Assembly (NCBI GenBank): GCA_002733355.1 | Contig: NVVN01000001.1 | Location: forward strand, 189,091 to 253,090 | DNA length: 64,000 bases | Origin: Sulfurovum sp. | GTDB lineage: Bacteria > Campylobacterota > Campylobacteria > Campylobacterales > Sulfurovaceae | Reading direction: 5' to 3' | Part shown: positions 30,001-33,000 of the stretch, piece by piece | Numbering within the stretch: the stretch's first letter is position 1 | Layout: the number at the start of each line of letters is the position of its first letter | Position numbers: made by a program

Positions 30001-33000
30001 TCGCAGGGATAGATCTGATACCGTATTTTGTAGCGATCTCTTGTTGCTCATCTGTGTTTACTTTACAGATTGTTGCTTTTCCGTCAAAATCTTCAGCTAG
30101 TTCTTCGATAACGGGAGCAATCATTCTACAAGGTCCACACCATGGAGCCCAAAAGTCTACCATTGTTACACCTTCTGCTATTGTTGCATCAAAGTTGTCG
30201 TTTGTTAAATCTACATATTTTGCCATATTTATTCCTTTAAATGTTTATTTTGTCATTATACAATAATTTCTATAATAGAATTATTGTTATAGCTTATCTT
30301 TTTTATTTTGTCAACTTTTTTGTGTGTTAAAACACAACTTTCTACGATTTATGCGTAGAACTGCTATCTAAAACTATCTCGTCATACTTTGAAGAGCGTG
30401 TGTTCCCGATTGTTTTNTTACTATGCCCTTTCACTGTATAGACAAAAGATATTTTAGGTGTATCTGTACTGTTTTTGTTGGCACGGTGTAGTAATTTACA
30501 GTGAAACAGCAGTACATCCCCTTTTCTCATAGAAAAGCTTACTTTTGTAGTGATAATATTCTGATTAACTTCTAGTTCATCAGAAAAATACTCTTTTTCA
30601 TCAAACTGAGACGCCTCAAATGTCATCTTGTGACTTCCTGGTATAAACTCCAAGACACCATTTGCATCATCTTCTGCATCTAGTGCAAGCCATATACTTA
30701 CAAGATTGTCATTTTCAAAATTCCAGTAACGAAAGTCCTGATGCCAAGAGGTTACTGTAGAAGTGTGTGGTATTTTTGTCATGATGGAATTATGATGCGC
30801 TATAGTTATAGTAGGGTCTTCTCCTAATAGTTGCTTTAAGACTGGACGTATTTTTTCATTTTCCATCCATTGCTTAAAAACAATATCACGATGATATACC
30901 TGTCGTAGTCGTCTTACAGTTAGGTGTGTGTCCTCTTGCTCACTTTTTGCATCAGAAATACATTTTCTATCTTCTTTGTTTTTACCTACATATTCAGACT
31001 CTGTTTCTATGGGAGGGATTTTATGTTTCAGATGTACAAGCGCTATATCTGTAATCATTTCACATAGTTTAGCATCTGCAAATTGTGGCAATATAAGAAG
31101 TCCGTCAGTATTGAATCGTTCTAATTGTGCATCTGTAAGTTTCATCTAGCCATCTTTGAAAAAATATTGTCAAAGATTATAGCGTAACATTCTCTATAAA
31201 CTCTACCTCATCATAACGTATAATCAAGGCATCTATGGAAAATGCCATATCAAGTTTTTTACTTTTCATATAGTAGTGTGACGAGTTAATGACTTTTCGT
31301 AATTTTGCTGCTGTAAGGTTATAGACTGGATCAAAATCAGCTTTACCTGATTTGACTTCTATGAAATGTAGTACCTCTTCTTTTTGGGCAATAATATCGA
31401 TCTCACCTAATTTTCTGGCAAAATAGTTACGTTCTAATATCATAAAACCTTCCTGCTCTAAAAACTGTGTGGCAAGGTCTTCACTCTCATCACCGAAAAT
31501 TTTGGGAAGTTCTCTCATAGCTACTCCTATATATTCTAAGTATAAAGTATAAAATCAAAAGGCATGTAAAATATGTCAAATTGTCAGTATTTTCTATGAT
31601 ATTACTAAGAAAATAAGAGTAAATTTGTCCTCATTATATGTGAACTAAAGTTTATTTAAGTATCTCTAGCTATTATCAGACAAAATTATATCTAAAGGAT
31701 TACAATGTCAACAATAAATATAGCCCAAGAATGTGGATGTTTCAAAAAAAGTGATTTAGTGAACAATGTCGCATTTGAGAACAAAGATGATGCGATGATA
31801 GAAGCACTAAGTATAGTAAGTCATATGAATGAGGCGTTCTGTGGTAAACATGGTTTTGAGCTTAGTGAAAACGGTGATGATTTTGCCATTGCTATGAAAG
31901 CACCTCAACAAGCGCAAGCTTCAAGTGGATGCTGTGGCGGTGGACACTGTAGTTAAATAGAACGCAAAATGAACAAAGTTCATCTTTGCTACGCTAACAC
32001 TGGGTTTTCTTCAGCAGAAAGCTCACGTGACTAGTCACGTTAAAAATACCTCAAATCAGTAATCCAAAAATCAATCTATTATTTAAAATTCCCAAACACA
32101 AGCGGCGCTTTTAAGTCCAGCTTCTTCACTTCAGCCATTACGGTTTGTAAATCATCTATTTTTTTCCCAGATACTCGTACTTCATCACCTTGTATGGACG
32201 GAGTTACTTTCACCTTCAAATCTTTTATGGCTTTTACTATCTGCTTCGCTTCATCTTTGTCTATGGTATCTACGATACGGTAAATCACCTTTGTGTTGCC
32301 ACCAGATATACCCTCCGTTTTTACCTCTTCCAGTGACTTTCCAGCGATGCCACGCTTGATGAGTTTAGAGATAAGTATATCTTTGAGTGCATCTATCTTA
32401 GAGTCCGTAGATGAACTCAAAGAAAGTGTCTTCCCTGCTTCGTTAAAGTTTATCTCTGCTTTTACACCCTTAAAGTCAAAACGCGTAGCTATCTCTTTTT
32501 CTGCCATAACTATCGCATTTTTCATTTCCATCATGTCTAGCTTTGCTGTTATATCNAAATAGTGGTCTTTTGCCATTATTGTTCCTTTTTTATGTTTAAC
32601 GAATTATCTAACCCTAATAAAATGTCATTTGTTAATTGCTTAATCATCTCATCGCTTATGTTCATATCTTCTATTGTTTTTATATTACTCAACCATAAAA
32701 GTGGAAAAGATTCTAATCTATAGATTAAAGTTTCTTTATCAAAAACAGATTTTTCATTAGCTATCTTTAAAATAGTTTCCCAATTAAATGATTCATGTTG
32801 AGCCAAACAAAAAAGATCAAAAAAGTCCTTTTCCTCATCTCTACCAATAATCGCAGTTACTTTATTGGCTAAGATATTTATCTTATTATCAACTCTAATG
32901 TCATTAATTATTTTACTTTTNCCCTCACGATGAACCCTGTCATTTACAAAGTCCAATTGTAACAAATCATCAACCATTATTCTATGGAAATCTTTAGTCT

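Follow-up and report, generated by a model that had tools for sequence, protein, structure and literature searches.

A structured repeat of 85–89 nt, composed of four hairpins and located in intergenic gaps, occurs in 14 copies and 4 partial copies in the genome of Sulfurovum sp. (G000). It is probably (roughly 0.55) a REP/ERIC-like, non-autonomous mobile repeat that was inserted in trans and has spread through the gaps of Campylobacterales genomes. The family is new; the kind to which it belongs (REP, ERIC, BOX) is already known. Small structured repeats matter for strain typing, for operon expression, and as a route to new enzymes (RAYTs, IS200/IS605 TnpA, TnpB guide RNAs). The present one is common in ecologically important sulfur oxidisers, and it combines unusually clean covariation and landing at stop codons with none of the known mobilisers.

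Identity and anatomy of the repeat

The first copy lies at 31952-32049 of the window, which is the whole 64,000-nt stretch of DNA analysed (G000:C6:189091-253090), and carries CTACGCTAACACTG together with the loop TCAGC. With at most one mismatch, the motif CTACGYTRACRCTG is found twice in the window against an expectation of 0.04, a count reached in none of 100 shuffles; the second match belongs to a further copy at 46312-46408 on the minus strand. The initial annotation had listed 14 occurrences of a repeat with four helices and no Rfam family. All 14 places (Table 1) do carry the repeat, and an independent covariance model, R1, trained on 11 uninterrupted copies in a MAFFT alignment, recovers the same 14 at E ≤ 0.0022 along with four weaker matches in G000. 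Partial copies, namely three of these four weaker matches and one further place, retain H3-GCTCA-H4. All 14 copies stand singly and are dispersed among housekeeping genes on at least nine contigs. The repeated unit measures 83–89 nt, and R1 matches cover its full length.

The absence of an Rfam family was borne out, as Rfam 15 gave nothing at E ≤ 0.1 in 31600-32400. Its three weak matches there (E 0.4–5.4) all fell far under their gathering scores, and the top one, at 19.5 bits where the gathering score is 39 (E 0.4), lies outside the repeat unit. A literature search found no account of this repeat; in PMC12306157, Sulfurimonas is named in a table only.

The consensus order is TTwA-ATAG-RACG, H1, CTACGYT, H2, H3 (loop TTCAGCA), GGCTCA, H4 (loop CTAG), and TT, and optional additional hairpins or inserts occur at fixed places in some copies. 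Likeness of copy 1 to its nearest paralogue begins at 31953 and stops at 32036-32043. A position logo built from 104 copies shows information climbing from position -4, with its maximum at TA and ACG. Between copy 1, at its 3' side, and the stop codon of the convergent DUF520 gene lie 37 nt. Gene calls come from a simple ORF picker and may be wrong in places. As side observations, one X7 contig jumps over 31951-32079, and a strain in X6 of about 96% identity diverges from the window right after 31950; each is at most a hint of an alternative state of this gap.

Table 1. Copies of the repeat, parts of copy 1, and adjoining genes (window positions, except in the first row, where positions count along the contigs of G000)
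Feature	Position	Strand	Remarks
14 confirmed places	C6:221042-221139, 235402-235498, 278668-278764, 338370-338491; C3:13054-13151, 27549-27646; C10:2750-2847, 58360-58458; C11:138503-138599; C20:89839-89936; C21:5340-5439, 15228-15373; C22:9581-9677; C5:1157-1233		first entry = 31952-32049 of the window
83-aa ORF	31705..31956	+	no Pfam match; terminates within 5' motif of copy 1
Copy 1, whole unit, 89 nt	31953..32041	+	R1 match C6:221047-221131, 104 bits, E 3.3e-18
5' motif TTAAATAGAACG	31953..31964	+	TAA stop codon of upstream ORF = 31954-31956
H1: 5 bp outside and 6 bp inside a C bulged on the 3' side; loop AAA	31964..31989	+	11 of 11 pairs with double changes
Conserved unpaired CTACGCT	31989..31995	+	columns (nearly) invariant across sets of 11 and 70 copies
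H2: AAC / GTT, loop ACTGG	31996..32006	+	covaries AAC/GTT, GAC/GTC, GTC/GAC
H3: TTCT / AGAA, loop TCAGC (32011-32015)	32007..32019	+	97.5% of cells paired
Conserved AGCTCA	32020..32025	+	T covaries with loop A of H3
H4: ACGTGA / TCACGT, loop CTAG, then T	32025..32041	+	6 of 6 pairs with double changes
DUF520 (YajQ-like) gene, convergent	32079..32576	-	PF04461, E 1.7e-53
RNA methyltransferase gene (PF04452)	45618..46286	-	start 33 nt past copy 2, same strand
Copy 2	46320..46407	-	R1 match C6:235410-235493 (-), 76.5 bits, E 1.6e-12
142-aa ORF	46400..46828	-	no Pfam match; TAG stop = TAG of copy 2's ATAG; distance -4

Secondary structure

The four helices stand on covariation. An earlier worry was that alignment A2, having been fitted to the model, favoured pairing; on unfitted alignments compensatory changes are found in all four helices. 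RNAalifold returned 25 pairs from an unfitted alignment of the 11 copies, 17 of them with double changes. For 70 copies from several genera in an unfitted MAFFT alignment, 83.1% of cells were paired, compared with 65.4 ± 0.6% after shuffling (0 of 500) and 31–50% when the partner was slid, and 24 of 27 pairs showed double changes. Moreover, mutual information recovered the helices from 131 distinct copies with no structure as input. H3 contains the two pairs that covary most strongly in the unit as a whole; pair 38-48 of H2 is A-T in 108 copies, G-C in 22, and G-T in 1. An extra covarying pair joins the loop of H3 to GGCTCA (A-T 120, G-C 9, other 2). Since sampling took the copies with the best scores, from genomes that are related, the counts are not independent.

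Wobble pairs are nearly absent. The 960 cells of 40 unfitted copies comprise 888 Watson-Crick pairs, 12 G-U, 33 A-C, and 27 others, which puts G-U at 1.3% of cells. With DNA parameters both strands fold alike (z-scores -3.28 and -3.43, n = 70). With RNA parameters, the more stable strand is split 21 to 19 in the Sulfurovum set, and across genera the minus strand has the greater stability in 48 of 70. Orientation is neutral, as claimed earlier, with 35 sense and 34 antisense copies between co-directional genes. Near-purely Watson-Crick helices, equal strands, and neutral orientation point to structure in the DNA itself or in the transcript of either strand.

Several further structures were tried and rejected. 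A long H3 (TGRGTT with GGCTCA) would be G-U-rich and strand-specific, but it is not kept: of the nine copies with G-C at the extra pair of the H3 loop, five have A at the partner position. The Y36/R41 and R41/R45 associations are best read as two linked sequence types rather than as pairs. A small ORF inside the unit was dismissed because 1-nt length differences in H1 break its frame.

Filled and empty sites

Units entered short gaps between genes at times that differ from lineage to lineage. Three intergenic sites are occupied in some congeners but not in others. Of the 30 genomes read at clpP-def, 4 have the gap filled, and in most of the remaining 26 it measures 8–15 nt. In the tRNA-Ser/SRP gap, also read in 30 genomes, the copy is complete in 10 and reduced to its 5' half in 1; the gap is empty in 13, and in 6 it has other or unreadable sequence. 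Between leuB and purU the repeat is present in G000, G012, G018, G029, and G031 and is internally deleted in G008; by coordinates, the two genes are 7–23 nt apart in six other genomes. The pyrH-rpoZ gap (30 read) holds the repeat in opposite orientations in different genomes, antisense in G000 and sense in G053, G033, G045, and G029, with a truncated copy in G019, 20 empty gaps, and 4 unrelated sequences. The presence or absence of the repeat at the same site in related species, reported initially for clpP-def, is thereby extended to other gaps, and the proposal that it is or was mobile is strengthened.

The unit appears to begin immediately 3' of an ATAG or ATAA word; in many cases that word is the stop codon with which the preceding gene ends. 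Most of the 104 copies read WTAR across the junction of 5' flank and unit, the ends not being fixed to a single base. Where the upstream ORF is co-directional, the end of its stop codon falls between -6 and +1 relative to the model start for 7 of 9 copies in G000, 7 of 13 in congeners, and 18 of 30 in named records. Empty leuB and pyrH sites carry a native stop word (GATAG, AAATAA) that is the ATAR of filled ones, and at clpP, too, a native ATAG or ATAA in empty sites falls on the WTAR of filled ones.

No general target duplication was detected in 104 copies, the longest word common to both flanks being 4.82 against 4.68 ± 0.10 in controls; at the pyrH-rpoZ event, GTTAAATAA stands on both flanks in G029 and nearly so in G053. 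Terminal inverted repeats are absent: TTAAATAGRACG at one end shows no complementarity to CGCATT at the other. Additionally, integron attC cores (RYYYAAC ... GTTRRRY) were not seen by eye at the unit ends, and the copies are not in cassette arrays. A preference for one replication strand was considered and rejected, since the bias is weak (7 to 3 in G000; 29 to 18 in G029, assuming the origin at position 1) and confounded with gene direction.

Distribution and age

The initial annotation placed the repeat in several genera, including named records of Sulfurovum, Sulfurimonas, Sulfuricurvum, and Sulfurospirillum. The wider survey agrees and adds Hydrogenimonas to the carriers among titled records. 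The repeat is present in 56 of 60 congeners with 0–43 R1 matches each, and G029 has 47. Outside the congeners it was found in 32 of 150 genomes of the order Campylobacterales, representing 10 of 26 families; the two largest families sampled had it in none of 113 genomes. Copies cluster unevenly. Tandem head-to-tail arrays with a period of 83–86 occur in some records outside G000, and a few tail-to-tail pairs occur elsewhere (L110, G063, G163).

The copies of G000 are old and vertically inherited. This follows from the identity among paralogues, which is 55–84% (median 67%), and from the finding that 10 of 11 copies have their nearest relative in another genome and not in G000.

Conservation in place and a possible host function

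Orthologous copies at the tRNA-Ser site are 86–93% identical beside a spacer that is not alignable, and the leuB-purU copies of G000 and G029, 71% identical, keep all four helices through compensatory changes. Such conservation looks like selection for structure in place, unless repeated insertions or conversions at a preferred site produced it, and selection of this kind would count against a purely selfish relic. It favours the view that the repeat is a host-selected cis-acting RNA module (a 3'-end protector, processing site, weak terminator, or translation-coupled brake) whose spread is secondary. The copies sit in gaps of housekeeping operons (clpP-def, amtB-glnB, leuB-purU, the rplJ side of rpoB, behind atpE, before rpmI, pyrH-rpoZ), and a stop codon falls within the 5' motif. 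Compared with an intrinsic terminator, H4 has 6–7 bp ending in TT, after which T follows at +0 in 54 and at +1 in 46 of 104 copies. However, the orientation of the units relative to transcription is neutral, and copy numbers from 0 to 43 within one genus mean that no gene requires the repeat. The G008 copy between leuB and purU persists without its middle, a mere hairpin barrier needs no conserved unpaired words, and wobble pairs are nearly lacking. A host module as the primary cause is regarded as rather unlikely.

Search for a mobiliser

Among the Y1 transposases and TnpB proteins looked at across congeners, no mobilising gene for the repeat was found. The earlier statement that a RAYT-like gene does not co-occur is upheld, as copy number and Y1 (PF01797) counts are uncorrelated over 60 genomes (Spearman rho 0.03). 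Eighteen genomes negative for PF01797 have 1–43 R1 matches (for instance 43 in G001, 36 in G041, and 33 in G007), and G054 has 31 Y1 hits and zero copies. Furthermore, R1 at E ≤ 1 with filters off matched nowhere in 29 loci (84,384 bases) round 11 TnpB and 18 Y1 genes. TnpB occurs in 8 of 60 congeners and is missing from G000; the idea of a TnpB guide-RNA remnant was dropped, as TnpB neither tracks nor flanks the repeat.

These results bear on a second alternative, in which the repeat derives from a REP moved by a RAYT-type Y1 enzyme, H1 read on the other strand being CGTAG-hairpin-CGTC and the rest a hitchhiker. CTACG does follow H1 in nearly all copies, and G000 possesses a separate classical GTAG REP family, ending CCTACG, around the RAYT-like ORF C11:5921-6421. 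The available portion of PMC3733652 describes GTAG and CGTC REPs in Sulfurovum sp. NBC37-1, the CGTC type having no transposase of its own. Since the copies are old, loss of the enzyme from some genomes does not contradict this derivation. Nevertheless, the repeat does not track PF01797, the 18 Y1 loci are free of R1 matches, the REPs flanking the RAYT-like gene are of a different, GC-rich sequence, and the units are mostly single rather than inverted pairs. An origin from a RAYT-moved REP is improbable. As a separate observation, the GTAG REP/RAYT family of G000 bears on any possible link between the repeat and the Sulfurovum repeats treated in the accessible text of PMC3733652. No CGTC-first hairpin family was found in G000, and the 58 places examined were all unrelated.

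Less probable readings

A compact functional RNA in multiple copies, whether a family of small RNAs acting in trans or a small fold resembling a ribozyme, would explain variable helices between invariant junctions and loops, the extra pair between the H3 loop and GGCTCA, and optional hairpins at fixed places. Gene context favours no strand, though, and folding energy gives no clear one either (48 of 70 minus; 21 to 19 in Sulfurovum). G-U pairs are rare (1.3% of cells), no Rfam family matches, and no conserved promoter lies upstream of the unit in the 104-copy logo. A candidate promoter, the complement of the 5' region, is -10-like at the tRNA-Ser site and was rejected for want of support in the same logo. 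On geometric grounds, an H3 of 4 bp and a linker of 1 nt would keep the extra pair from forming a normal pseudoknot. A functional RNA is very unlikely.

Equally slim is the chance that a compact fold with a tertiary contact, from AGC of the H3 loop to GCU of GGCUCA, is the active part of a new small mobile element. It would be either a self-cleaving or self-ligating RNA with an RNA stage or the single-stranded DNA substrate of a new recombinase family; its targets would be ATAR, and stop codons would be targeted in consequence. A last reading makes the unit a chromosomal site bound by a DNA protein of the host (nucleoid, gyrase, or replication-linked), on the pattern suggested for REP/BIME. 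It would suit the two-strand symmetry, the purely Watson-Crick palindromes, and the intergenic position, but is the least credible of all, since the stems vary freely and cannot be read by a sequence-specific dimer, there are only 1–47 copies per genome and zero in some congeners, and the copies cluster unevenly.

Proposed course of insertion and its significance

The unit is a row of four different hairpins joined by strictly conserved unpaired words, with stem sequences free to change provided that complementarity stays. In the preferred account of a non-autonomous mobile repeat, insertion in trans would be performed by an enzyme recognising folded single-stranded DNA, that is, the hairpins and conserved loops, and not terminal inverted repeats. 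The enzyme would be one other than the resident Y1 transposases or TnpB of the genomes examined. Once inserted, the unit would probably be transcribed within the operon, where either orientation would give four RNA hairpins behind the stop codon. By analogy with REPs in E. coli, these hairpins might block 3' exonucleases or terminating ribosomes.

R1 is usable for annotation and prevents copies from being taken for genes or small RNAs. The repeat also provides a search target, namely the enzyme or host factor that reads the four hairpins together with CTACGYT, TTCAGCA, GGCTCA, and CTAG. If the copies are kept by selection in place, they would represent a mobile repeat recruited to operon control outside enterobacteria.

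Comparison with known systems

As far as the available text of PMC3733652 describes REP/REPIN-RAYT systems, the likeness is considerable: the elements are short, intergenic, and hairpin-forming, with a CTAC(G) word beside the hairpin; their stems vary by compensatory change; their copy number differs widely among species; and they lie mostly between co-directional or convergent genes. By the same partial account, a REP is one palindrome of 20–40 nt, whereas the present repeat has four different hairpins in fixed order over 85 nt, and its units are mostly single, unlike the inverted pairs or clusters of REPINs. H1 with CTACG fits as a REP module; R1 matches are nevertheless full length. Moreover, the repeat has no RAYT linkage, and the true REP family of G000 is of different sequence.

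ERIC elements (IRUs) of enterobacteria are about 100 nt long, form one long imperfect palindrome, and occupy transcribed intergenic gaps. They share with the present family the use of both orientations, the transcribed gaps, well-kept orthologous copies, and no identified mobiliser. The repeat, however, is not palindromic as a whole, has no sequence resemblance to ERIC, and belongs to another host group. BOX elements of Streptococcus pneumoniae are modular, with modules repeated in variable number. The present repeat is modular as well, its 3' module H3-GCTCA-H4 occurring also alone and optional inserts occurring at fixed places, but its modules and sequence are different and the order of modules is fixed.

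IS200/IS605 elements and their gene-less derivatives lack terminal inverted repeats, carry hairpins near both ends, and insert 3' of a short fixed word. The repeat is similar in its end hairpins, its apparent position 3' of a fixed word, and the lack of terminal inverted repeats and of clear duplication. It departs from those elements in that the hairpins at its two ends differ from one another, neither Y1 TnpA nor TnpB is linked to it, and replication-strand bias is weak. Finally, work attributed to Liang, Rudd and Deutscher (2015) reportedly found that terminating ribosomes stall at REPs of E. coli situated just after stop codons; to our knowledge, this has been demonstrated in E. coli only. 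The present repeat likewise begins a stable hairpin within a few nucleotides of the stop codon, but about half of its copies face the opposite way, and a comparable effect on ribosomes here may be supposed by analogy.

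The repeat and its architecture

The 85–89-nt unit is an interspersed repeat with four helices (H1 to H4), and two copies lie in the window. All 14 places listed for this genome (G000) in the initial annotation were borne out, both by reading the sequences and, independently, by a covariance model (R1) built from a MAFFT alignment of the 11 uninterrupted G000 copies. R1 recovered these 14 at E <= 0.0022, together with four weaker matches. Copy 1 consists, in order, of TTAAATAGAACG, H1, CTACGCT, H2, H3 (loop TCAGC), AGCTCA, H4, and T. In a logo of 104 copies the 3' limit is sharp, after TT, while the 5' limit is soft, at about -4.

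Coordinates of features in the window
Feature	Position in window	Strand	Remarks
83-aa ORF	31705-31956	+	protein end CCGGGHCS; no Pfam match
Repeat copy 1	31952-32049 (C6:221042-221139)	+	coordinates of the initial annotation
Repeat copy 2	46320-46407	-	motif match and sequence read

In a strain of about 96% identity (alignment run X6), the last Ser codon of the 83-aa ORF is TCA, not AGT, and the sequence diverges right behind it. The window also has 135 N runs. Most are one letter long, a dense group of them lies at 37727-37933, and several ORF translations contain X as a result.

Partial copies were found by motif scan. H3-GCTCA-H4 alone is retained at C21:5764, C6:318315, and C10:153203, and at C20:797 H1, H3, and H4 are present with the core missing; the unit is therefore modular. 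The 3'-half copy at C6:318250-318360 lies between direct repeats of at least 19 nt (ATGTCTAGTATTGTACTTT), which take in the beginning of the ORF that follows. Additional small hairpins are found at fixed positions in some copies (C21:15228-15373 and C6:338370-338491 in G000; the clpP-def gap of loci L044 and L068 from congeners G018 and G033): one of 48 nt inside H3, one of 25 nt between H2 and H3, and an AT-rich one of some 44 nt that replaces CTACG and differs in sequence between two genomes.

Covariation of the helices

Compensatory changes support the structure. RNAalifold predicted 25 pairs from an unfitted alignment, 17 of them with double changes. Across 70 copies of several genera, aligned without fitting to a model, a five-helix structure of 27 pairs (H1-H4 plus a loop-tail triplet) was paired in 83.1% of cells, against 65.4 +/- 0.6% for shuffles (0 of 500 reaching the observed value) and 31-50% for slid partners; 24 of the 27 pairs showed double changes. 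The 3-bp fourth helix, H2, alternates between AAC/GTT, GAC/GTC, and GTC/GAC among the 40 Sulfurovum copies read. Mutual information over 131 distinct copies, computed without a given structure, also recovered these helices. A further pair covaries in these copies, between the A of the H3 loop (TTCAGCA) and the T of GGCTCA (A-T 120, G-C 9, other 2). A normal pseudoknot looks impossible here because the linker is only 1 nt; an alternative mini-hairpin, AGC/GCT, is possible.

Distribution and insertion polymorphism

R1 matches occur in 56 of 60 congeners, with 0-43 per genome and 772 altogether. Beyond these, 32 of 150 other genomes of the order matched at E <= 1e-5, spanning 10 of 26 families and 17 of 69 genera (the genus count includes G000). 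The two largest families gave no R1 match in the order-wide sample (0 of 9 and 0 of 10), and likewise none in a second sample weighted to them (0 of 53 and 0 of 60). A scan for the exact core found at least 121 stretches, 80 of which were retrieved; among the matches listed, record titles name Sulfurovum, Sulfuricurvum, Sulfurimonas, Sulfurospirillum/Sulfurospirillaceae, Hydrogenimonas, and unclassified Campylobacterales. Tandem arrays with a period of 83-86 are present in MAGs titled Campylobacteraceae bacterium and Epsilonproteobacteria bacterium.

Insertion polymorphism is directly visible at several sites. The clpP-def gap, previously described as filled in some genomes only, is indeed filled in 4 of the 30 read. 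Between tRNA-Ser and the SRP RNA gene, 30 genomes comprise 10 with a full copy, 1 with the 5' half only, 13 empty, and 6 with other or unreadable sequence. In the pyrH-rpoZ gap the copy of G000 is antisense, those of G053, G033, G045, and G029 are sense, and that of G019 is truncated; 20 genomes are empty and 4 carry unrelated sequence. This gap was therefore hit at least twice. Additionally, leuB-purU is filled in six genomes, with an internal deletion in the G008 copy. A pair of GTAG-type REPs (GTAGGGTGGGTTTTCTAACCCACC ...) replaces the unit in the leuB-purU gap of L296 (G032), and thus different repeat families occupy the same gaps. At the tRNA-Ser/SRP gap, G053/G001 and G047/G050/G046 have a different insert starting with an H1-like hairpin, and loci L206-L235 show the SRP RNA gene inverted relative to tRNA-Ser(GGA) between congener groups.

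The G000 copies are old. Identity between paralogues is 55-84% (median 67%), and for 10 of 11 the nearest relative is in another genome. Orthologous copies at the tRNA-Ser site share 86-93% identity beside an unalignable spacer, and the leuB-purU copies of G000 and G029 keep every helix at 71% identity. This conservation reflects either selection acting on the copies where they are or recurrent insertion or conversion at preferred sites.

Genomic placement and insertion site

The G000 copies occupy housekeeping-operon gaps: clpP-def, amtB-glnB, leuB-purU, pyrH-rpoZ, and aminotransferase-hisS-like, the gaps behind atpE and before rpmI, the one separating the L10 side from rpoB, and the one separating tRNA-Ser(GGA) from the SRP RNA gene. 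With ORFs from a simple in-house picker, for which single cases may be wrong, the stop codon of a same-direction upstream ORF ends between -6 and +1 relative to the start of the model in 7 of 9 G000 cases, 7 of 13 congener cases (9 of 13 if the range is widened to +8), and 18 of 30 cases from named records. The TAA or TAG contained in TTAAATAG is this stop. The leuB and pyrH genes each end at one and the same codon whether the gap is filled or empty, their native GATAG or AAATAA supplying the ATAR word (ATAG/ATAA) of the unit, and several empty clpP-def gaps already have ATAG just behind the stop. On the simplest reading of these native words, insertion takes place directly 3' of ATAR and the element proper begins at RACG. 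A general target duplication was looked for and not found; one event at pyrH-rpoZ has GTTAAATAA on each side of the insert.

Strand symmetry

In a 40-copy set of 960 cells, 888 are Watson-Crick, 12 G-U, 33 A-C, and 27 other; wobble pairs are nearly missing, and the orientation chosen here gains no support from the few mismatches. Under DNA parameters both strands fold well, at z-scores of -3.28 and -3.43. Judged by RNA parameters, 48 of the 70 copies drawn from several genera are more stable as the minus strand; the Sulfurovum copies divide 21 to 19. Between co-directional genes, 35 copies are sense and 34 antisense (G000, 7/3; 29 congener loci, 11/10; 69 copies from named records, 17/21). Among 13 copies in four clusters of G029, 9 lie directly behind a co-oriented ORF, 1 is antisense, and 3 are other, a mostly-sense result from copies selected for being clustered and not a fair sample. 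The few wobbles, two-strand folding, and neutral orientation speak for a structure that is important in DNA or, just as well, in either transcript.

Search for a mobiliser

PF01797 (Y1 transposase) matches are present in 42 of 60 congeners but do not follow the copy number of the repeat (rho 0.03). TnpB is found in 8 of the 60 and not in G000. No R1 match lies near Y1 or TnpB genes at 29 loci, at E <= 1 with filters off.

A classical GC-rich GTAG REP family (GTAGGGTGCGGTTGC.A.CGCACC) is present at many places in G000 as well, often in inverted pairs; four of its copies flank a RAYT-like Y1_Tnp ORF of 166 aa (C11:5921-6421) at C11:5790-6520, outside the window. The sequence of this REP differs from the 85-nt unit, though it also ends in CCTACG. 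Y1_Tnp ORFs of 256-258 aa at C8:2937-3707 and C15:17389-18165 have inverted repeats of some 20 nt on their two sides (GGGGTCAGGTGA... / ...TCACC(C)GACCCC). A search of G000 for a CGTC-first hairpin family found none; for Sulfurovum sp. NBC37-1, GTAG as well as CGTC REPs are reported (PMC3733652).

Relation to known repeat families

The favoured mechanism is past insertion by a putative single-strand DNA enzyme reading the structure, with the unit acting as a hairpin barrier within operon mRNA. Insertion polymorphism and placement are demonstrated; the enzyme and every effect on RNA are inferred. Literature searches found no description of the 85-nt repeat. It is real, well-defined, and widespread, and its general kind is known from REP, ERIC, and BOX. 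The unit differs from these in having no identifiable mobiliser, in its preference for ATAR words and stop codons, and in a new architecture, which combines four dissimilar hairpins and conserved unpaired words with one long-range pair and lacks terminal inverted repeats.
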